A stretch of 64,000 nt of DNA, taken from NCBI GenBank assembly GCA_013001465.1, contig JABDMM010000029.1:11385-75384 (forward strand), read 5' to 3'. Below are positions 2,935 through 39,972 of the stretch, piece by piece. Both the position numbers and the translations under genes were made by a program. The notes under the pieces are model-generated. The model made no database searches. It saw only the letters and a program-made list of their open reading frames with translations, and was not told the DNA's origin. Origin of the DNA: Chitinophagales bacterium (GTDB taxonomy: Bacteria; Bacteroidota; Bacteroidia; Chitinophagales; JABDMM01). Positions within the stretch are counted from its first letter, which is position 1, and the number at the start of each line of letters is the position of its first letter.

Positions 2935-4842
2935 ATGAGCGATTTTATCAAGCATGAATGTGGGGTAGCATTGATCCGCCTCCTCAAACCTCTCGAATAT
3001 TATATCGAAAAATATGGCACCCCTGCGTATGGTCTGAACAAGCTTTACCTGCTTATGGAGAAACAACATAACCGCGGTCAGGATGGCGCAGGAATCGCAT
3101 CCGTAAAACTGGATATGTTAGCTGGTGGACAGTATATTGATCGGCTGCGGTCTCTTGAAGATCAACCTATTAAACACATTTTTGAAGAAGTTTTTATTCC
3201 TTTCAGAAAGGCTAATGTTAAGCAACTGAACGATGCGAAATGGATCAAAAGAAATCTAAAATTTTCCGGTGAGCTACTCTTAGGTCATTTAAGATATGGC
3301 ACTCACGGCAAGAACAATATTAATAATTGCCACCCTTTTGTTCGTGAAAATAACTGGATGGCCAGGAATTTGGTCATTGCCGGAAACTTTAACCTCACAA
3401 ATGTTGATGAGTTGTTCGATCAATTGATTAGCCTTGGTCAGCATCCAAAAGAGAAATCCGATACTGTGACTGTTCTTGAAAAGATAGGTCATTTCCTGGA
3501 TGTAGATGTCCAGAAGATTTTTGATAAGTATAAAGATCAGGGATATTCCAATACTGATATCACGAGGTTCATTATCGATGAACTAAATGTAAAAAGAATA
3601 CTCAAGCGATCTGCAAGAGATTTCGACGGTGGCTACGTTATGGCTGGTTTGATAGGTCATGGTGATGCTTTCGTTATGCGAGATCCAAATGGAATACGAC
3701 CAGCCTATTATTATGTAGATGATGAAGTTGTCGTTGTTGCATCAGAACGCCCCTGCATCCAAACAGCATTCAATGTTCATTTCGACAACATCAGAGAAGT
3801 AGGTCCCGGCAAAGCGTTGATAATTCGCAAAGATGGGGTTGTAAAAGAAAAACAAATCCTCAAACCCAGAGAAAAAAGGTCCTGCAGTTTTGAGCGTATC
3901 TATTTTTCCAGAGGAACTGACTTTGAAATATACAGAGAGCGGAAAGAATTAGGTTATTTGCTGACCGATGTAATATTGAATGAAATAGACAACGATCTGG
4001 AAAACACCGTTTTCTCATTCATCCCAAATACGGCAGAAGTCGCTTTCTATGGTATGATGAAAGGGTTGGATGAATATATCGATAATTACAAGTTAAAGAC
4101 CCTGCGAAAACAGCTACCATTGTCAGAAGAAGAGACCAATCACTTGATCAGATTAAGACCACGGGTAGAAAAAATAGCTGTAAAAGATGTTAAAATGAGA
4201 ACTTTCATTACCGATGATAGCTCAAGGACAGACTTGGTTTCTCATGTATACGACATTACTTATGGTTCTGTGATCGCGGATAATGATACATTGGTTATCA
4301 TAGATGATTCAATAGTAAGAGGTACAACACTTGAAAAAAGTATCTTAAGTATTCTCGACAGGCTGTGTCCAAAGAAGATCGTGATCGTTTCTTCAGCGCC
4401 TCAGATCAGGTACCCTGATTGTTATGGTATAGATATGTCCAGATTGAACGAGTTCATTGCTTTTAGAGCTGCTGTTCGGCTTTTAAGAGAACATGACAAA
4501 GAACACATTCTTGAAAAAGTTTACGCTGAATGCAGAGAGCTTCTGAAATTGCCTACATCAAAATGCACATATAATCCGGTGAAACAAGTATATGATTCGT
4601 ATAGTCAGGAAGAAATTTCTGCAATGATATCAGAGATTGTTAAGCCAAAGCATATTTTCTCGGATGTCAAGATCATCTACCAATCTATCGACAACCTCCA
4701 CAAAGCATGTCCTAACAATACAGGAGATTGGTATTTTACCGGTAATTATCCAACTCCCGGAGGTAACAGAATGGTTGCGACTGCATTCATTAATTTCATG
4801 GAGGACCGCGATGTTCGTGCATATGAGGTTGCCTACTCTTAA
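2935..4842 (+). CDS. purF: Amidophosphoribosyltransferase (long Bacteroidota form)
   Basis: 635 aa. Ntn-amidotransferase N-terminus (..HECGVALI), PRTase loop LVIIDDSIVRGTT, and a length typical of the Bacteroidota enzyme. Confidence 0.9.
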   Translation: MSDFIKHECGVALIRLLKPLEYYIEKYGTPAYGLNKLYLLMEKQHNRGQDGAGIASVKLDMLAGGQYIDRLRSLEDQPIKHIFEEVFIPFRKANVKQLNDAKWIKRNLKFSGELLLGHLRYGTHGKNNINNCHPFVRENNWMARNLVIAGNFNLTNVDELFDQLISLGQHPKEKSDTVTVLEKIGHFLDVDVQKIFDKYKDQGYSNTDITRFIIDELNVKRILKRSARDFDGGYVMAGLIGHGDAFVMRDPNGIRPAYYYVDDEVVVVASERPCIQTAFNVHFDNIREVGPGKALIIRKDGVVKEKQILKPREKRSCSFERIYFSRGTDFEIYRERKELGYLLTDVILNEIDNDLENTVFSFIPNTAEVAFYGMMKGLDEYIDNYKLKTLRKQLPLSEEETNHLIRLRPRVEKIAVKDVKMRTFITDDSSRTDLVSHVYDITYGSVIADNDTLVIIDDSIVRGTTLEKSILSILDRLCPKKIVIVSSAPQIRYPDCYGIDMSRLNEFIAFRAAVRLLREHDKEHILEKVYAECRELLKLPTSKCTYNPVKQVYDSYSQEEISAMISEIVKPKHIFSDVKIIYQSIDNLHKACPNNTGDWYFTGNYPTPGGNRMVATAFINFMEDRDVRAYEVAYS

Positions 4843-5272: not shown

Positions 5273-5330
5273 AATACTCCCCGTCAATTTTAGTGAATAA
5301 TGCAATGTGCGATAGAAAACCAAAACTATC

Positions 5331-7232
5331 TTGAAGTTTAACAATTTTATAAAGGTTGCCATAAGTGGCCTTTTCATATTAGTATCTGTAAATTATTCAT
5401 CTGGCCAGGGATTTGGGTTAGATTCATTAGATCTAACGAAGTCCAAAAAGCGCAAAGATGAGAAGCAAAACCAGGTAGAGTTTCTTCAACCTGATATCGA
5501 TGCTTTATATTACAATTATTATAAGCGAGATGCCATTTCAAGTCCGCTTAGTCCACGACTGGATCTTGACTCAATGGCGTTCCATAAAGATAAGAACAAG
5601 CGCATTCAACAGGATGCTTATACTAATAATGAATATTATTACCCTTCCAAGCCTCGTAACCAATGGGAGTTAGGTGTGAACGGTGGGTTGATGATGATTA
5701 GCGGAGATGTTAAGACTAAATTTTTAGGAGGTAACAAACCTGCTCTACCTGGATATGGCGTAGGATTCTCGGTTAGAAAAGCATTAGGCTATGTATTGTC
5801 TATTAGAGGTCAATATCTCTTTGCGAGAACTTCAGGTCAAAACTGGGAACCCAGAAGTGCAAGATGGGACAATGCAGTTAACGGTTTAAATGATGCCGCA
5901 GTAGATTACAAAGTAAATGGGAACCCTGCAGCGAGTGGGCTTTACTTCCCAAATTACCGAACTACACTTCACGAATTTTCAGTTTCCGGAGTGATAACTT
6001 TAGGAAATGTGAGATTCCATAGAGAGAGGAATAGACTTAATTTTTATGGCTTTTTTGGCGCCGGTATGATGGCATATTATACCGAGGTTGATCAGTTAGA
6101 TGCTAACGGTAATATTTACGATTACAGAAATGTACTCGATTACTACTATACAAACCAAGGATTAGTAAACTCGACGAAAGAGCTTAAAGCTGAGGTGTTA
6201 AATCAGCTTCATGCATTATCAGATGGCAAGTTTGAAACGGCAGCTGAAGGACACAAAAACGAGGAAGGCTTTGGGAGATATGTTACTAATCCGATCGCCA
6301 ATGTTGGAATTGGAATTGGATTTCACCTTTCGAAAAAAGTCACTCTAAATCTTGAACAACGAGTGACCTGGACAAACGATGACCTGCTCGATGGAGTAAG
6401 GTGGCAGGATACCGAAGCTGATGCCATATTAACAAGAGATTATGACACTTACGGCTATACGTTCGCATCTTTAAATTTCCATTTAGGAAAAGACGCAGTG
6501 GAACCACTTTGGTGGATGAATCCAATGGACCATACTTACAAAAGGTTAGGCCAGATGGATCCTGCTGCAATGATAGAAGATCTCATCAAAGATGACGATG
6601 ACGATGGCGTACCAAATAAATTGGATCGAGAACCGGAAACTCCAACGGGGTGCCCGATCGATCCAAAAGGAATAGCACTTGACAGTGATGGAGACGGTTG
6701 TATCGATTGTCTCGATAAAGAACCGTTCTCTCCACCTGGTTATCCAATTGATGAGAATTGTGTTGCCATAGTGCCTGAATCTGAATGCTGTGATGAAGTA
6801 TCAACAGCACCTGCTGATCTCGATTGTTCGGCGGTGAATCTTCCGAGCATTCACTTTGAGATCGATAAATTCTATATCAGTCCTGAGTTTTTCGCTCATT
6901 TACACTCGATTGCGATGCGTATGCAAATGTGTCCGGATCTGAGAGTGATGGCCATTGGAACTGCAGATTCAAGAAGCTCTTCAAAATATAATGAACAGCT
7001 TTCGTGGAACAGGGTAAATAAAGCAATTACTTATCTTACAGAAAAGTATGGCCTATCCAGAGACCGATTTATCGTAGACTATATTGGTGAGAAGGAAGCG
7101 GGATATGCAAAGTCTGAGTTTGAACATTTACAGAACCGTCGAGTAGACTTCAAATTTGCTGAAGGAGAATCCGGACCTAGTAATCCTCCTGCACCGCACC
7201 CTGGCTTAAAAGCCGGAAGTGATAACTATTAG
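5331..7232 (+). CDS. OmpA-family outer-membrane protein with thrombospondin type-3 (Ca-binding) repeats
   Basis: 633 aa with a signal peptide. Asp-rich repeats (DDDDDGVPNKLDREP, DSDGDGCIDCLDKEP) and a C-terminal OmpA domain (IHFEIDKF..., NRRVDF). TTG is the first canonical start after an in-frame TAG at 5313. Confidence 0.85.
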   Translation: MKFNNFIKVAISGLFILVSVNYSSGQGFGLDSLDLTKSKKRKDEKQNQVEFLQPDIDALYYNYYKRDAISSPLSPRLDLDSMAFHKDKNKRIQQDAYTNNEYYYPSKPRNQWELGVNGGLMMISGDVKTKFLGGNKPALPGYGVGFSVRKALGYVLSIRGQYLFARTSGQNWEPRSARWDNAVNGLNDAAVDYKVNGNPAASGLYFPNYRTTLHEFSVSGVITLGNVRFHRERNRLNFYGFFGAGMMAYYTEVDQLDANGNIYDYRNVLDYYYTNQGLVNSTKELKAEVLNQLHALSDGKFETAAEGHKNEEGFGRYVTNPIANVGIGIGFHLSKKVTLNLEQRVTWTNDDLLDGVRWQDTEADAILTRDYDTYGYTFASLNFHLGKDAVEPLWWMNPMDHTYKRLGQMDPAAMIEDLIKDDDDDGVPNKLDREPETPTGCPIDPKGIALDSDGDGCIDCLDKEPFSPPGYPIDENCVAIVPESECCDEVSTAPADLDCSAVNLPSIHFEIDKFYISPEFFAHLHSIAMRMQMCPDLRVMAIGTADSRSSSKYNEQLSWNRVNKAITYLTEKYGLSRDRFIVDYIGEKEAGYAKSEFEHLQNRRVDFKFAEGESGPSNPPAPHPGLKAGSDNY

Positions 7233-7876: not shown

Positions 7877-9151
7877 ATGAAAAACCTTAGAGCAGTAACT
7901 ACATTGCTTATAGCTAATGCTGTATCAGGTGTTGCTCAGGGAATAACCATGATCGCCATCCCTTGGTATTTCACCAGTATTATGGATAAAACTCAATTAT
8001 TTGGAGTCATCTACTTTATAGTTACTCTCGTTTCGCTTTTTTGGGGGCCATCTGCAGGAACGATAGTAGACAAGTTCAATAGGAAAAAAATCATGCTTAC
8101 AATAACAGGCAGTGGCACAGTGTTGATCGCCACTCTTGCTACATTAACATACCTGAGTAATGGTGAACAATGGATCTATGTCGCATTGGTTTTTGGGGTT
8201 ACCGTATTCATTTATAACATTCACTACCCTAATTTATATGCCTTTGCGCAAGAGATCACTGAAATCAGCAACTATGGTAGGATCACTTCATATCTTGAAA
8301 TTCAAGGTCAATCCACTTTCGCAATAGCTGGTGCAATAGGTGCTATATTACTAACAGGCACAGATGATGGCGTATTTAAGATCCTGGGGCGAACATTTGA
8401 TCTGGGATTTAAGATCGATGCCTGGCCTTTGCATAAAATATTTTTCTTTGATGCATTCACATATATCGTTTCATTCTTACTTCTGAGTTCGATCAAATAC
8501 GAATCACTTTTTCATAAAGAAAAAAGCCGATTGTCTTTTTTAAAAAGGTTTAAGCAAGGGGTCAGTTTTTTGCGTGAGAATAGATTGATCTTCATTTTTG
8601 GCAATGCCTCCTATTTCGTTTTCGCTACTATCCTCGTGTCGGGATTTTTCCTCATACCTAAATACGTTGATGCACAACTTCAGGAAGGAGCGGAAGTATA
8701 TGCATGGGGTGAAATGTTTTTTGCCCTTGGTTCATTGTTCGCAGGATTTCTCATTAATAGAGTATTTGATGCAAAAGGACCCGTAAAAGGGATCATCGTT
8801 TTAAGCTGTTTAGCATCTCTCGTTTACTTTTCGCTTGTATTCAATATCTGGGCAGGCTTTTTCTATTTTGCGTATCTGTTGATCGGACTGGCAAACGCTG
8901 GAATCCGTATTTTAAGAATGACCTACATTTTTAAGACTGTCCCTAATAATGTCATAGGCCGGCTAGGTAGTATTTTTATGGTGATCAATACATTATTTAG
9001 GCTGTTCTTTATTCTCTTGTTTTCAATTTCGATTTTCACAGTCGGAAATCATGTTGTTTATGCTTTTTTCATTTTGGGTATATTTACCTTGTGTGGTATG
9101 TCAATACTGATTTATTATTTAAAACCACTTCGAGCCTTAACTCGGAATTAA
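7877..9151 (+). CDS. MFS transporter
   Basis: 424 aa with roughly 12 predicted TM segments. It has an MFS loop motif, GTIVDKFNRKK. Confidence 0.8.
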   Translation: MKNLRAVTTLLIANAVSGVAQGITMIAIPWYFTSIMDKTQLFGVIYFIVTLVSLFWGPSAGTIVDKFNRKKIMLTITGSGTVLIATLATLTYLSNGEQWIYVALVFGVTVFIYNIHYPNLYAFAQEITEISNYGRITSYLEIQGQSTFAIAGAIGAILLTGTDDGVFKILGRTFDLGFKIDAWPLHKIFFFDAFTYIVSFLLLSSIKYESLFHKEKSRLSFLKRFKQGVSFLRENRLIFIFGNASYFVFATILVSGFFLIPKYVDAQLQEGAEVYAWGEMFFALGSLFAGFLINRVFDAKGPVKGIIVLSCLASLVYFSLVFNIWAGFFYFAYLLIGLANAGIRILRMTYIFKTVPNNVIGRLGSIFMVINTLFRLFFILLFSISIFTVGNHVVYAFFILGIFTLCGMSILIYYLKPLRALTRN

Positions 9152-10084
9152 ACTATATCTATAATCGAAAGCTGGTATATAATTATAAATCCCAGAGCAG
9201 GACAGGGGAAAGGAAAAAAACGATGGATCAGCCTTGAAAAGTCGCTTATTGAAAAAGGCATTTCTTATTCGAGCTCATATACTGAATATAAAGGCCAGTC
9301 TTCTTTTATCGTTCGACAAGCAGTCGAACAAGGGTTTAGAAAATTTATTTGCATCGGAGGTGATGGATCTTTTCATCATTTGGTTAATGGATTATCTAAT
9401 TCTAACATCCCTGCAACAGAAGTTGAGTTACTTATTGTTTCGGCAGGTACAGGAAACGATTTTGCAAGAAATTATAACATGCCCAGGGGAAATGAAATTC
9501 TCGATCTGATCGATAATGGTGACCGGCATATTCAGGATCTCGGAACAGTAACATACCAAGTAGATGGAGAAAACCAGAAATCTTTCTTTCACAACTTTGC
9601 CGGAGCTGGATTTGATTCCTATGTCATCAAGAATAATAGTAACCTGAAGTGGCTTGGAGCTTCCTCATACATGTTCTCGATCTTCACCTCCTTCCTTTCA
9701 TACAGCAATAAGCACTGTTTGATAAATGCCGGTGGTGACATTATAGAAGGAAAAATTTATATGATGCTAGCAAGTGTAGGAACCTACTGTGGTGGTGGTA
9801 TGAGAATAAACAAAAATGCTGTTACAGATGATGGCTTGTTAGACCTGCTTATTGCAAGAGACATCAATAAACTAGATGTAGCTCTAAATGTATCTTCTCT
9901 TTATAATGGTTCTATCTCAAGTCACCCAAAAGTATATACCAGACAAGTTGAACAGCTTTCGATCATTCCAAAAGATATTCTATCGGTAGAAGCTGATGGA
10001 GAATTGCTGGGTATAGCTCCTTCTGAAATTAAGATCGTTCCGAAAGCGTTAAAAGTTCTTATCCCCAGAGACTTTCGATCTTAG
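9152..10084 (+). CDS. YegS/DAGK-family lipid kinase (open frame; true start unresolved)
   Basis: A continuous frame from 9152 encodes ..SWYIIINPRAGQGKGKKRW...FICIGGDGSFHHLVNG...SAGTGNDFAR, the diacylglycerol-kinase catalytic domain. The first ATG/GTG/TTG in frame is TTG at 9380, downstream of the GGDG motif. The track therefore shows only 9380..10084. Confidence 0.75.
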   Translation, partial: TISIIESWYIIINPRAGQGKGKKRWISLEKSLIEKGISYSSSYTEYKGQSSFIVRQAVEQGFRKFICIGGDGSFHHLVNGLSNSNIPATEVELLIVSAGTGNDFARNYNMPRGNEILDLIDNGDRHIQDLGTVTYQVDGENQKSFFHNFAGAGFDSYVIKNNSNLKWLGASSYMFSIFTSFLSYSNKHCLINAGGDIIEGKIYMMLASVGTYCGGGMRINKNAVTDDGLLDLLIARDINKLDVALNVSSLYNGSISSHPKVYTRQVEQLSIIPKDILSVEADGELLGIAPSEIKIVPKALKVLIPRDFRS

Positions 10085-16485: not shown

Positions 16486-18171
16486 TCAGACCTTTATTTG
16501 GTTTAACTCATTTCTGATTTCATTAGCTAACCTCTCTACGATTCCTTCCTTAAACGGTGATTCGAGTTTGGCTAGTTTAACAAGTTCAAGAAATGAGCGG
16601 CTTCCACCCGCTTCACATAAAGTAAGGTAATCTTGCCATGCAGTTTTATAATCATCCTTCATCTTTAGCCAAAATTGAAAGGCGCATATCTGGGCAAGAG
16701 TATAATCTATGTAATAAAACGGAGTGCTATAAATATGCAGTTGTCGCTGCCAATAACCACCGTTCTCGAGATATTCATTGCCTTCGTAATTCTTGGAAGG
16801 GGTATATTTTTTCTCCAGTTCACGCCACTTTGCATTCCTTTCATCCGGAGTCATATCCGGATTGAGATAAACCTCATGCTGAAATTCATCGACAGTTGCA
16901 CCATATGGAAGAAATAGTAAACTTCCAGCCAGATGATCGAATTTGTACTTGTCCGTCTCTTCTTTAAAGAATAGATGCATCCATGGCCAGGTAAAAAATT
17001 CCATACTCATTGAGTGAATTTCGCAAGCTTCGTATGTAGGCCAGTGATATTCCTGAACTTCGAGGTTTCTAGATGAATAAACCTGAAAAGCATGCCCGGC
17101 TTCATGGGTAAGAACATCAATATCATGAGAGGTGCCATTAAAATTGGAAAAAATAAAAGGTGACTTGTAATTATTGATGAAGGTGCAATAACCACCTGCC
17201 GCTTTTCCTTTCTTGTTGACCAGGTCCATCATCTCATGTTCTCTCATGAAACTAAAAAACTCTCTGGTTTCTTCTGAAAGTTCAGAATACATCTTCATGC
17301 CATTCTCTATAATCCAATCCGGTTCCCCTTTTGGTTTAGGATTGCCGTTTTTGAAAGCGAGAGGAAGATCATAGTACATCAGTTTATCTAAACCAAGTCT
17401 CTTTTCCTGAGCTTCTCTCAATTTGACACAGATCGGTACTATATGTTTTTGGATATTCTCTCGAAACTTTGCCACCATTTCCATATTGTAGTCGGATCTT
17501 AACATTCTCTTATATCCCAGCTCGACAAAATTGTTGTATCCTAACTTCTGTGCAATTCTATGCCGTGTCTTAACCAATTTATCAAATAGCTCGTCAAGTT
17601 TCTCCTTGTTATCTGCCAAAAATTTGAATTTTGCTTCCGATGCTTTCCTTCGAACTTCCCTATCCGTGGATTGGGTAAAAGGTTCGATCCCACTCAAATT
17701 ATAAACCTCACCATTAAATTCAATTTTAGCTGAAGCGATAAGGTTTGTATACTCAGTAGATAGTCTATTCTCTTTAGTTAGGTCATCAATAATCTCTGGT
17801 TCGAAAGTCTTTACCATAAGTTCAGCAATCGTAAATAACTGGTCGCCAAACTTATCTATGAGCCTTGCTTTGTGAGGAGATGCATTGATAGCTCTGTAAA
17901 AATTGTTTTCGAGATCTTCATAATGCGGCATTATCTCATCGAAATAATTTTGCTCTTTCTCATATTGCTCATCCTCTGTGTTAATAGAGTGTCTTACGCT
18001 GGCAATAGATTCATGAGTCCTGAAGTCGTTTCTTAACTCATTTATCTTGTAAAGAATTTCTGACTGCTGCTCAAAAGACTCTGCACTTCGAAAGCTTGCA
18101 GTCAAGTTGCTGTATTCTTTCTTTACAAGCTCTATGTCTGGTCTTTTATATTCTAATTCTGGAAATTTCAT
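16486..18171 (-). CDS. M3-family oligoendopeptidase (PepF-like)
   Basis: 561 aa with the zinc motif HEAGHAFQ and overall PepF-like sequence. Confidence 0.85.
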   Translation of the reverse strand: MKFPELEYKRPDIELVKKEYSNLTASFRSAESFEQQSEILYKINELRNDFRTHESIASVRHSINTEDEQYEKEQNYFDEIMPHYEDLENNFYRAINASPHKARLIDKFGDQLFTIAELMVKTFEPEIIDDLTKENRLSTEYTNLIASAKIEFNGEVYNLSGIEPFTQSTDREVRRKASEAKFKFLADNKEKLDELFDKLVKTRHRIAQKLGYNNFVELGYKRMLRSDYNMEMVAKFRENIQKHIVPICVKLREAQEKRLGLDKLMYYDLPLAFKNGNPKPKGEPDWIIENGMKMYSELSEETREFFSFMREHEMMDLVNKKGKAAGGYCTFINNYKSPFIFSNFNGTSHDIDVLTHEAGHAFQVYSSRNLEVQEYHWPTYEACEIHSMSMEFFTWPWMHLFFKEETDKYKFDHLAGSLLFLPYGATVDEFQHEVYLNPDMTPDERNAKWRELEKKYTPSKNYEGNEYLENGGYWQRQLHIYSTPFYYIDYTLAQICAFQFWLKMKDDYKTAWQDYLTLCEAGGSRSFLELVKLAKLESPFKEGIVERLANEIRNELNQIKV

Positions 18172-18181
18172 ATTGAATAAT

Positions 18182-18706
18182 TTATAGAATTCGTTTGATC
18201 CTTTTGGTGAAAAAGTTAACTATGATAACAATATTCAAAGCGATAACCAACACCAGGCTGCCTATCCCAATGATAAAAACTTCTCTGTAAAGATATTTCA
18301 AAAGTCTGGCTTCTTCACCAGCTGAGATTTCATCCTTTAAATGGTTTGCAAATGACTCTATTTCATAGGAATCCATAACTACCGAGAATTTTTGCAGGTT
18401 TGAAAGGATGAAAACAAACAAATGAATATTCAAGAGAAAAATAATGAGCTTAACCCATTTATTCCGAAAAATCAGAATGTCTTTAAAGAAAACACTATAT
18501 CGGAAATAGGTAATGAAAGTAAATATGATCAGAACATTAAACCAATAAAAAGTATAATGAATAGCTGATGTAACTGGCAATAATATGACGTAAGCTGATA
18601 AGACAGTAACCAGCCACCAAATAGCTTCTCTTAAATATTTTAATTTGTTATTAGACGGATGAAAGTCTGAAGTCAGTTTTTGGCTCATATCACTGGCAGC
18701 CTTCAA
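18182..18706 (-). CDS. Hypothetical 4-5 TM membrane protein
   Basis: 174 aa and hydrophobic. It overlaps the upstream kinase-like gene by 17 nt and lies 10 nt from the M3 peptidase gene. Confidence 0.5.
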   Translation of the reverse strand: MKAASDMSQKLTSDFHPSNNKLKYLREAIWWLVTVLSAYVILLPVTSAIHYTFYWFNVLIIFTFITYFRYSVFFKDILIFRNKWVKLIIFLLNIHLFVFILSNLQKFSVVMDSYEIESFANHLKDEISAGEEARLLKYLYREVFIIGIGSLVLVIALNIVIIVNFFTKRIKRIL

Positions 18707-20576
18707 TGCAATTGCCTTGCAGATTTATGATCTGAGCGATACCGAGAACTGAGACTTTAGCCTTGTCACCACTAAAGGGCTCGGCGCTGTCAAACTTGAA
18801 AGGGATAATTAATTTTCCGCTCCTATCAATATAGCCCCATAAGCCATCTTTTGATACTGCTGCTGTGTTTTGGCTGAAGGACTTAACATAATCGTACTCA
18901 ATTTCTCCCAGAACATTGCCGGCTGTTGAAATAAAGCCCCACTTACCATTTAACCTTACAGCAGCTAGTCCATCAGTAAAATTAGTGACGAAATCATATG
19001 ATGCAGGTATTTGTTCTTTCCCATCCGAATTGATGAATCCCCACTTATTTTCTTTTTTAACCATAGCAAGTCCGCCATCGAACTGACCAATATATTGATA
19101 TCTTGGAGGCATCGTTATGTTTCCTTTACCATCCTTTAAGCCTATCTTACCGTTAGCCGCTGTAAATTGTATTCTTTTATCATCTCTAACCTCAATAGGA
19201 GTTTCCGGCGGAATCTTTATACTCTCATTTGGTTTTGGGTTTTTTTTCTCAGCAACCTCGCCTGTAACCATATCCGTTAACTGGCTTGTAGTTTCGTTGG
19301 AAACTTCAGAATTGGAAGCAGGTTGTGGACTTTGAGAAGCGATCACTTCCAGATCTCCTGCGTCTTTCGTTGCCTCTGCTTTCGAATTCTTATGATTAAT
19401 TACCGATATACTGAAGAAGGTGATCGCAAACAAGCCAATCACAATCCAAAGAACTGACCATGTCCAGTTAAGTGCGGTGTCTGTGCTGTCTGATGACTTT
19501 TCTCTCCAACTCTCTTTTCTCGATGACGGCTGCACTGCCGAGTTTATTTTTTCGATCAAGTCATTCTCTTCATCTAACTGACTCAATTGAACTTCTTGTT
19601 CATCTTCGACAAAAATACTTTCTACCAATTCATTATTGTCGAACTCTGTTTTTGGAGTTTCATTAATTGGCTCAGCCCTAGGTTTGGTATCACTCAAGAT
19701 CACATTACTCGTTTCCTCGGAGACTAAATTTTGCTCTATAAATTGAGATGGAACTTCTGCATTGCCTAAAAGGATATCATATGCATCCTTAACTGACTTA
19801 AGCCTGTTTTGAGGATCCACCTGCAGGCATTGGTCTATGAGGTATCTCACTTTTGGAGACAAATCGGCCGCTATCTGACCATGTAATCCAGAAAGTATGT
19901 TATTCTTTAGCTTTTCAGCGCCTAAAGAATTTACAGAGCCAAATGGCGGTTGGCCCATTATCATCTCAAACAGGATCGCTCCAAATGACCAAATGTCTCC
20001 TGAAACAGACCCCTGCTGTCTTCTAAAGTATTCAGGTGGCAAGTATTCTATAGGATCAGAAGAAAAAACCGGCAATGCAAAACCCTTCAATTTAATTTTA
20101 ATATTGCCTTCCTCGTGTTTGATCAAAATATTTTGAGGCTGTAGGTTACCATGAAACAGCTGATTTGAATGGAGGTAATCCAAGCCTTTTAAAACCTGAA
20201 CTAAAATCTCTTTTTTTAGATCGTTAGACGGGAGAGTTCTTAAATAAACTTCTAGAGTAGATGCACCCTCGAAAAGCTGCTGAACAACTATACAGCATGA
20301 ATCGGAGTCCAGTCCCAGATGGTCGGGTGGTTCTATCTGAAAAGAGCTTTTATACTCAAGTATGTTTGGATGAGCAAGCCAGGTCAGATTCTTAACAGCC
20401 TTCTGAATCTCCTCACCTGCTGTATCGCTTTCCTTGATGAGATCTACAAAAACTTCTCTGTCTGTGACATTATCCCGACCTATAAAAGTAAGTCTGGCAT
20501 CAGATTCGAAAAACTTTCTTTCAAAATTAATGGTCAGAAAAGACTGAGATGAAATGTTTAAATCGGTTGTTGACAT
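18690..20576 (-). CDS. Membrane Ser/Thr protein-kinase homologue (predicted pseudokinase) with C-terminal WG/KWG repeats
   Basis: 628 aa. Kinase-fold motifs are present (HPNILEY, LKGLDYLHS, DIWSFGAILFEMIMGQPPF, DPQNRL), but the HRD position reads HGN and the DFG position reads KGF. One TM helix (VLWIVIGLFAITFFSISVI), then repeats of the form W/KWGFI(N/S)..G....P..YD. Confidence 0.8.
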   Translation of the reverse strand: MSTTDLNISSQSFLTINFERKFFESDARLTFIGRDNVTDREVFVDLIKESDTAGEEIQKAVKNLTWLAHPNILEYKSSFQIEPPDHLGLDSDSCCIVVQQLFEGASTLEVYLRTLPSNDLKKEILVQVLKGLDYLHSNQLFHGNLQPQNILIKHEEGNIKIKLKGFALPVFSSDPIEYLPPEYFRRQQGSVSGDIWSFGAILFEMIMGQPPFGSVNSLGAEKLKNNILSGLHGQIAADLSPKVRYLIDQCLQVDPQNRLKSVKDAYDILLGNAEVPSQFIEQNLVSEETSNVILSDTKPRAEPINETPKTEFDNNELVESIFVEDEQEVQLSQLDEENDLIEKINSAVQPSSRKESWREKSSDSTDTALNWTWSVLWIVIGLFAITFFSISVINHKNSKAEATKDAGDLEVIASQSPQPASNSEVSNETTSQLTDMVTGEVAEKKNPKPNESIKIPPETPIEVRDDKRIQFTAANGKIGLKDGKGNITMPPRYQYIGQFDGGLAMVKKENKWGFINSDGKEQIPASYDFVTNFTDGLAAVRLNGKWGFISTAGNVLGEIEYDYVKSFSQNTAAVSKDGLWGYIDRSGKLIIPFKFDSAEPFSGDKAKVSVLGIAQIINLQGNCIEGCQ

Positions 20577-20588
20577 AATTATACAACG

Positions 20589-20596
20589 GCAAAGGT
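20589..20596 (-). promoter_or_regulatory. -7 box TACCTTTG upstream of the kinase-like gene
   Basis: Exact TAnnTTTG on the minus strand, but only 12 nt from the ATG at 20576. This implies a very short leader. Confidence 0.3.
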
Positions 20597-20649
20597 AATG
20601 ACAACTTGTGTGAAGAAAGAATGTTATTGTTAACAGTTATAACAAAGCC

Positions 20650-38961: not shown

Positions 38962-39360
38962 CTATTCTGAAACATAATTCTCCATGATTGAATGAATGCG
39001 TCTGGTGTCACTATATACCTGCCAATATTCGATTTGGTTTCCTTTAATTTGTATCCGCCAGGCACAGGGTTGCCTCCATTTGTGATCTTTGTTCTCGCTT
39101 CCCATGTAGCTTCCGGAAGCAAAACCGAATAATCCAACCAAATCGCCCTCCAGAAAATAATTTTCTACTTCTATAAAGTAATCAGGAAACCACTGGAAAT
39201 AGGACTTCCAGTTTTGAAGCATCATCGACCTACCTTTAAACATCTTACCGCCAGCATCGACATAACGATGATTTTCAGTCATCAATGATTCCAGGGATTC
39301 AATATCTTTCTGGTTAATTGATTGAATAAATTGAAGGACGACATCTATAGGATCGGCCAT
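38962..39360 (-). CDS. NTF2-like (SnoaL-like) domain protein
   Basis: 132 aa. The pattern VLQFIQSINQKDIESLESLMTENHRYVD is typical of SnoaL/NTF2-like proteins. Confidence 0.55.
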   Translation of the reverse strand: MADPIDVVLQFIQSINQKDIESLESLMTENHRYVDAGGKMFKGRSMMLQNWKSYFQWFPDYFIEVENYFLEGDLVGLFGFASGSYMGSENKDHKWRQPCAWRIQIKGNQIEYWQVYSDTRRIHSIMENYVSE

Positions 39361-39396
39361 GATTACAGTAACTTCGTTTCAACAAAAATTAAAATA

Positions 39397-39972
39397 GTGA
39401 AAATAGGCTTATTTTTTGGTTCTTTTAATCCCATTCATACAGGCCATCTGATTATTGCAAATTATCTACACAGTCTTTCAGATCTCGACAAGGTCTGGTT
39501 TGTTGTTTCTCCGCAGAACCCTTTTAAATCTAAATCAACGCTCCTGAATAAGTATGATCGTTTTCATCTTGTCCAACTTGCGGTGGAAGATAACGATAAT
39601 CTGGAAGCGAGCAACATAGAGTTCAGCATGCCGTTGCCTTCTTATACCATAGATACTCTTGTTTATTTAAAAGAAAAGCACCCGGATAAACAATTTTCAT
39701 TGATCATGGGTTCTGATAATCTAAAGAGCTTTCATAAGTGGAAAAACCATGAGTCCATTTTAGAAGATTACGATATTTATGTGTACAGGCGATTGGGAAG
39801 CGATACCCATCAGTTGGGAGAGCATTCAAATGTTCATATTATTGACGTGCCTTTTATTGAGATTTCTTCAACGTTTATAAGAGAAAGTATTAAAGCAGGA
39901 AGGTCGGTTAAGTATTTTGTACCCGAACCAGCCTTAAAATATATTGAAGAAATGAATTATTATTCAGAATAA
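39397..39972 (+). CDS. nadD: Nicotinate-nucleotide adenylyltransferase
   Basis: VKIGLFFGSFNPIHTGHL (HxGH motif) and ISSTFIR. GTG at 39397 is preferred because the track start at 39322 overlaps the divergent gene. Confidence 0.85.
   Translation: MKIGLFFGSFNPIHTGHLIIANYLHSLSDLDKVWFVVSPQNPFKSKSTLLNKYDRFHLVQLAVEDNDNLEASNIEFSMPLPSYTIDTLVYLKEKHPDKQFSLIMGSDNLKSFHKWKNHESILEDYDIYVYRRLGSDTHQLGEHSNVHIIDVPFIEISSTFIRESIKAGRSVKYFVPEPALKYIEEMNYYSE

Follow-up and report, generated by a model that had tools for sequence, protein, structure and literature searches.

How translation of a gene begins when its conserved N-terminus precedes every canonical initiation codon in its frame is the question raised by one locus in a 64,000-nucleotide stretch of DNA from a metagenome-assembled genome (MAG) of a Chitinophagales bacterium (this whole stretch is termed the window in what follows). 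An MFS transporter gene ends there with TAA at 9149–9151, and the same reading frame stays open behind it for 310 codons, from 9152 up to TAG at 10082–10084, where it encodes what is predicted to be a lipid kinase. The original prediction had noted both the stop and the open frame, and the ORF and codon listings bear it out. It had also claimed that canonical starts are lacking from the first part of the kinase frame, and a codon-by-codon listing indeed has no ATG, GTG, TTG or CTG from 9152 through 9379. Not until TTG at 9380 does a canonical start appear; the 234-aa ORF reported by ORF finders begins with it, and the first in-frame ATG is codon 110 of the kinase ORF. What the frame does contain near the expected kinase N-terminus are AUH codons: ATA at 9155, ATA at 9161, ATC at 9164 and ATA/ATT/ATA at 9179–9185. 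The features concerned are the following.

7877–9151, + strand: MFS transporter gene, upstream partner in the putative operon, a 424-aa ORF (Pfam MFS_1, E=1.6e-18)
9149–9151, + strand: TAA stop of the MFS gene, sharing its frame with the kinase
9152–10084, + strand: ORF of the predicted YegS/Rv2252/BmrU-type lipid kinase (DAGK_cat and YegS_C), apparently intact
9155–9157, + strand: ATA, the GenBank/PGAP start codon, giving a 309-aa product MSIIESWY...; +3 nt from the MFS stop, with A at −3
9161–9163, + strand: ATA, probably the ancestral start in mutated form, four residues ahead of the conserved Trp; +9 nt from the MFS stop
9164–9166, + strand: ATC, an alternative near-cognate candidate, three residues before the Trp; +12 nt from the MFS stop
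9356–9367, + strand: GGDG nucleotide-binding motif (codons GGA GGT GAT GGA), upstream of the first canonical start
9380–9382, + strand: TTG, first canonical start in the kinase frame, use of which removes 76 residues including GGDG

The observed state, a startless and otherwise intact kinase gene behind the MFS stop, is confirmed. The MFS ORF at 7877–9151 is an exact match to GenBank NNC94309.1 (424 aa), and the kinase is on record there as NNC94310.1 (309 aa, from the MAG Chitinophagales bacterium), called from the ATA at 9155; the two genes share one 92,762-bp contig. A non-canonical ATA start is already part of the public annotation of this locus. Gene callers limited to ATG, GTG and TTG would cut 76 residues, and GGDG with them, from a kinase that PGAP rescued with its ATA start.

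Membership of the product in the YegS/Rv2252/BmrU family is indicated by curated profile cut-offs, which are passed with both domains full-length. TIGR00147 is matched with 145.7 bits (cut-off 118.65), kinase residues 7–305 corresponding to profile positions 3–295 of 296. Pfam DAGK_cat (PF00781) scores 84.4 against a cut-off of 23.6, with residues 8–131 on profile positions 2–123 of 125, and Pfam YegS_C (PF19279) scores 88.1 against 27 over kinase residues 151–303. Because the profile matches begin at residues 7–8, the conserved N-terminus really does lie upstream of any canonical start, and with it GGDG, as had been read from the letters alone. All 19 columns that are invariant in a 23-sequence alignment are retained (19/19: NP, GGDG, G.GND, GGGM and the C-terminal DGE), GGDG being the invariant columns G69, G70, D71 and G72; the sole departure noted in nearly invariant columns is Phe in place of Trp104. 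The window gene is a predicted YegS/Rv2252/BmrU-type lipid kinase whose coding sequence appears intact. Its product is like the YegS/Rv2252/BmrU and DgkB-type soluble lipid kinases in having both domains full-length and the GGDG, G.GND, GGGM and DGE motifs, and differs from them in that Phe and in being at most 41% identical to any database protein (the best non-self match among 5.8 billion proteins).

A startless run is by itself not unusual, since 11 of the 45 genes of the window have internal runs of at least 76 codons free of start-like codons; it is the location at the 5′ end that sets the kinase run apart. Stop-to-stop ORFs of 150 codons or more number 48 in the window, the kinase among them, and in all of the others (47/47) a canonical start occurs no more than 31 codons past the upstream stop, while the kinase needs 76. 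It is the only one of the 48 with such a missing-start defect. When ATG, GTG and TTG were looked for in all frames from 9101 to 9222, none was found, and the resulting start-free gap at the junction, 125 nt, is one of roughly the ten longest among some 3,090 such gaps in the window. Since no frame offers a start within 9101–9222, an indel cannot supply one and only a substitution can; rescue of the start by an indel or a frameshift is ruled out on this ground. Genome GC is 38.5%, and the 310 codons of the kinase ORF have no stop among them.

Comparison of orthologous loci, which the original prediction had proposed as a check, was possible at some evolutionary distance, and in nine distant loci it reveals separate genes and ATG starts. 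A scan of GTDB species representatives by MFS alignment yielded 80 loci with 39–49% identity, and in 6 of the 80 the kinase is directly downstream of the MFS gene (L012, L022, L024, L025, L029 and L040), the other 74 MFS-orthologue loci being without a kinase nearby. The same pair is present at L001 and at two metagenome loci (L088 and L089). The kinases of the nine pair loci are 36–38% identical to that of the window, and each starts with ATG (9/9). At eight of them (L001, L012, L022, L024, L025, L029, L088 and L089) the MFS stop and the kinase ATG overlap, by 8 or 11 nt and in different frames, and at L040 there is an 18-nt gap between the two genes. The MFS proteins of relatives are orthologous to that of the window (46–49% identity) and end at the equivalent place, 2–3 residues later than the window's. 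At L001, for instance, where the kinase is 36% and the full-length MFS 46% identical to the window's, the MFS protein ends three residues later, with an overlap of 11 nt between the MFS end and the kinase ATG (ccATGaagaaTAA).

Adjacency and tight spacing of the pair are conserved across lineages in these nine loci, and the different-frame overlaps of 8 or 11 nt suggest that translational coupling is ancestral. MFS gene and kinase gene probably constitute an old operon of two separate, translationally coupled genes. By the same comparison the window junction appears derived: the two genes are in the same frame, the MFS stop is 2–3 codons earlier, there are about 11 extra nt, and ATA stands for ATG. 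ATA is not conserved among these distant orthologues (the start is ATG in 9/9 syntenic relatives, and the nearest relative of the kinase is 41% identical). The best kinase relative in JGI metagenomes is 37% identical, and the best MFS relative 49% identical among GTDB species representatives, from which the MAG's own lineage is absent.

Which of the AUH codons occupies the place of the usual start can be judged from homologues. Among the best 120 kinase homologues, from which N-terminal offsets were surveyed, the commonest distance from the first residue to the aromatic residue of W-F-x-I-x-N-P in non-redundant proteins is 4 (30 proteins). An offset of 11 was scored for 34 homologues, which are near-identical 322-aa sequences of one clade. 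Nearly all of the homologues scored begin with M (90/95). In the 23-sequence alignment, 10 of the 22 other sequences have Met in the column of the window's Ile4, which is encoded by the ATA at 9161–9163. The claim that ATA and ATC codons are present where members of the family normally start holds in that ATA 9161 coincides with the modal Met of homologues; the PGAP start at 9155 probably precedes the family Met position by two codons. ATC 9164 corresponds, by extrapolation, to position 1 of the TIGR00147 profile.

A start-context model trained on 36 local ATG starts is small and overfitted, and was treated as weak. ATC 9164 scores best under this weak model, close to the average true start and at the 98th background percentile, while ATA 9161 is at the 73rd, ATA 9155 at the 34th and TTG 9380 at the 30th; the model favours 9164, gives 9161 no advantage over it and disfavours 9155. 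As the family Met position is that of the ATA at 9161–9163, a single G-to-A transition at 9163 would explain the anomaly, and would by itself account for the missing start. That the reverse change (A9163G) creates ATG, as had been pointed out, is evident from the sequence.

What initiation at such a codon might yield is known mainly from E. coli, where AUA, AUC and AUU support about 1–2% of AUG initiation in one reporter system and 0.02–3% in others (bioRxiv 10.1101/063800). Termination-reinitiation is efficient only while the stop-start spacing stays within about −8 to +10 nt, and falls by 40–80% at +13 or +14 nt (PMC10666635); the scanning mechanism in reinitiation is still debated (PMC12548453). 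The ATAs at 9155 (+3) and 9161 (+9) are within the efficient range, and ATC 9164 (+12) is borderline. Bacteroidetes ribosomes do not use Shine Dalgarno pairing, and initiation in this group relies on start regions that are A-rich and unstructured, with stray AUGs depleted near starts (PMC6847099). Folding of the junction RNA revealed no structure of a kind that could mediate coupling by unfolding or promote readthrough (z=+0.73). A literature search on bacterial reinitiation at AUA or AUC and on ATA starts among Bacteroidota found nothing specific, and turned up no documented reinitiation of any kind for that phylum.

The account towards which we lean, as the likeliest of those considered if still short of probable, is that the ancestral start was lost by an ATG-to-ATA change and that small amounts of kinase now arise from AUA or AUC, through near-cognate initiation or reinitiation. 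In the ancestral state the kinase ATG would have overlapped the MFS end and the two genes would have been translationally coupled. The junction would then have been remodelled so that MFS synthesis stops at TAA 9149, and the family Met codon would have become the ATA at 9161–9163 by a G-to-A transition. Initiator tRNA may now pair with a near-cognate codon, AUA 9161 if not AUA 9155 or AUC 9164, to give low-level initiation, which would be favoured by ribosomes terminating 3–12 nt upstream, by unstructured A/U-rich RNA and by there being no rival AUG, GUG or UUG in any frame for about 120 nt. The sequences themselves establish the state of the junction, the place of the homologous Met, the conserved gene pair with its overlaps and the integrity of the ORF; both the reality of the base call and the making of kinase protein are what we infer. 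Among the four options offered by the original prediction, start-codon substitution has the strongest support, because ATA 9161 falls exactly on the modal Met of homologues; near-cognate initiation or reinitiation is plausible from the 3–12 nt spacing and the conserved overlapping pair in relatives, and a fusion by TAA readthrough is disfavoured. A stronger version, in which initiation at AUA or AUC is genuine and a stable trait of the lineage, and the kinase is made only by ribosomes that have just come off the MFS gene and restart at a near-cognate codon, is decidedly doubtful.

Divergence of the kinase relative to its neighbour bears on these possibilities. The ratio of kinase to MFS identity is 0.75–0.88 in pairs of loci that include the window and 0.91–1.08 in other pairs. 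With L040 as the outlier, the MFS proteins are about equally distant (41% identity for the window against 41–42%) and the kinases are not (36% against 42–44%). This points to a kinase that evolves faster in the window lineage. The extra divergence would fit long-term low expression or relaxed constraint, is only suggestive, and has no tie to the start codon.

Two of the points that stand against low-level near-cognate synthesis, namely that all relatives use ATG and that near-cognate codons give no more than 3% of AUG output in E. coli (bioRxiv 10.1101/063800), also speak for a nascent pseudogene, in which a real ATG-to-ATA change occurred so recently that the kinase is effectively unmade and there has been no time yet for stops or frameshifts to appear. 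Divergence of the kinase beyond what its MFS partner leads one to expect could reflect relaxed selection of just this kind. However, the 310 codons are stop-free and keep every invariant family residue, whereas long-term loss of function should bring disruptions, none of which is seen in the kinase ORF, and a weakly coupled gene would need just such a stop-start spacing and a junction free of competing starts. A pseudogene of very recent origin fits almost as well as the favoured account, from which it differs only in whether residual translation matters; we consider it unlikely, though deserving of real weight. Somewhat less probable again is that the codon at 9161–9163 is truly ATG and the G-to-A artefactual, through sequencing, polishing, a mixed-strain consensus or a minority allele. 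The sequence stems from a metagenome-assembled genome, the base comes from one genome, and a single transition restores a start exactly at the homologous Met position. Against this, substitution errors in an assembled consensus are rare. The 47 other long ORFs all start normally, no genes are split and domains are full-length; moreover the junction differs from that of relatives in more than one base (same frame, earlier MFS stop, about 11 extra nt), which points to a locus that has truly been remodelled. A generally poor assembly of the window was considered and is unsupported by these same normal starts and unsplit genes, and the ten neighbouring ORFs have either full-length Pfam domains or no match, none being split.

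Readthrough of the TAA, which would tether the kinase to the cytoplasmic C-terminus of the transporter as an MFS–kinase fusion, draws on the two ORFs being in the same frame, parted only by that codon, and on there being no internal canonical start. It is very improbable: the genes overlap in different frames in eight relatives, where fusion is impossible, the best 120 kinase homologues are stand-alone proteins of about 300–350 aa, no readthrough-promoting structure is apparent, and TAA is the ordinary, dominant stop of the window (30/45 genes). Stop-codon reassignment is unlikely for like reasons, the relatives having separate genes with an equivalent MFS end, and TAA being usual. Equally hard to credit is a truncated protein from TTG 9380, or from the ATG at codon 110, with the open frame upstream as a relic. 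In favour of TTG 9380, no canonical start precedes it and ORF finders report the ORF from this codon, but the product would lose the NP..G loop and GGDG, both invariant in the family, and the 76 codons ahead of it form an open stretch with homology to the family. The context of TTG 9380 is poor (30th percentile, by the weak 36-sequence model), and no database protein begins at the equivalent position. The original prediction had allowed that orthologues might naturally begin there and lack the GGDG region; none among the best 120 homologues does.

The favoured account, low-level synthesis after loss of the ATG, is best set beside other natural near-cognate starts, such as those of E. coli infC and pcnB with AUU and the ATA, ATC, ATT and CTG starts in GenBank. 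The window gene is like these in having an AUH codon at the expected start and a conserved N-terminus upstream of any ATG, GTG or TTG. The AUU of infC is conserved and serves IF3 autoregulation. In contrast, the available relatives of the window kinase all use ATG and no regulatory logic is evident at the window locus. Known coupled gene pairs have overlaps of −1, −4, −8 or −11 nt, or spacings of up to about +10 nt. The window pair resembles them in being co-directional and in having relatives that overlap by 8 or 11 nt, and differs from them in that its genes are same-frame and non-overlapping, with AUA or AUC as candidates in place of restart at ATG, GTG or TTG.

As it stands, the locus is a single-base oddity of known kind and mainly an annotation point, and one base of a MAG cannot carry a broader claim. 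Should the base call be correct and the protein be synthesized, the locus would offer a natural case of near-cognate initiation or reinitiation in Bacteroidota, a group in which start sites are chosen without Shine Dalgarno pairing. Were restart by ribosomes just off the MFS gene the sole source of kinase, the amount of kinase would follow transporter synthesis strictly and at a low ratio, in a phylum without Shine Dalgarno-guided initiation.

The conserved operon of MFS and lipid kinase genes, with its overlaps of 8 or 11 nt, hints at a functional link between transporter and kinase. At five other loci (L002 and L004–L007) kinase homologues adjoin RNase R and there is no MFS gene. The pairing of an EntS-like MFS gene with the kinase is seen only in some Chitinophagales-type lineages.

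Several Chitinophagales-type MAGs share a conserved gene pair, an EntS-like MFS transporter gene followed by a YegS-type lipid kinase gene. In eight loci with this pair, six from relatives (L001, L012, L022, L024, L025 and L029) and two from metagenomes (L088 and L089), the end of the MFS gene is overlapped, by 8 or 11 nt, by the ATG of the kinase, with the consensus aacccaaaccATGaa(n)TAA.

MFS-kinase overlaps, by locus
L001, 2990-3015: overlap
L012, L022, L024 and L029, around 4229-4251: overlap
L025, 1741-1757: overlap
L088, 1339-1360: overlap
L089, 1732-1750: overlap

At a further relative's locus, L040, an 18-nt spacer separates the two genes, and the kinase is absent at 74 of the 80 MFS-orthologue loci returned by the scan of GTDB species representatives.

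The junction in the window is some 11 nt longer than in relatives. The 12 nt from the MFS stop to the homologous start position (9152-9163) have the sequence ACTATA|TCTATA, in which a hexamer is repeated in tandem almost perfectly, and this could be a small duplication that contributed to remodelling of the junction. Spanning the junction is a 125-nt stretch (9101-9222) from which ATG, GTG and TTG are absent in every plus-strand frame; it ranks among the ten or so longest gaps of its kind in the 64-kb window, and may reflect the AUG depletion near start sites described for Bacteroidetes, or chance.

Compared with its counterparts in L001, L012, L022, L024, L025 and L040, the window kinase (9152-10084) has a long branch. 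Its identity to the kinases of the syntenic relatives is 36-38%, against 47-49% for its MFS partner, while in all other pairs kinase identity is about that of the MFS; its top database match has only 41% identity.

Elsewhere in the window, TTG or GTG is the first canonical start in two plus-strand ORFs, 5316-7232 and 39322-39972, with the first ATG 86 and 102 codons, respectively, into the stop-to-stop ORF. On the minus strand, 16486-20636 carries a Ser/Thr protein kinase gene and then two tightly packed same-strand ORFs, for which a Pfam search (E<=1e-5) gave no match.

ORFs of the minus-strand group
18690-20576, minus: Ser/Thr protein kinase with WG-containing beta repeats
18182-18706, minus: ORF without Pfam match
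16486-18171, minus: ORF without Pfam match
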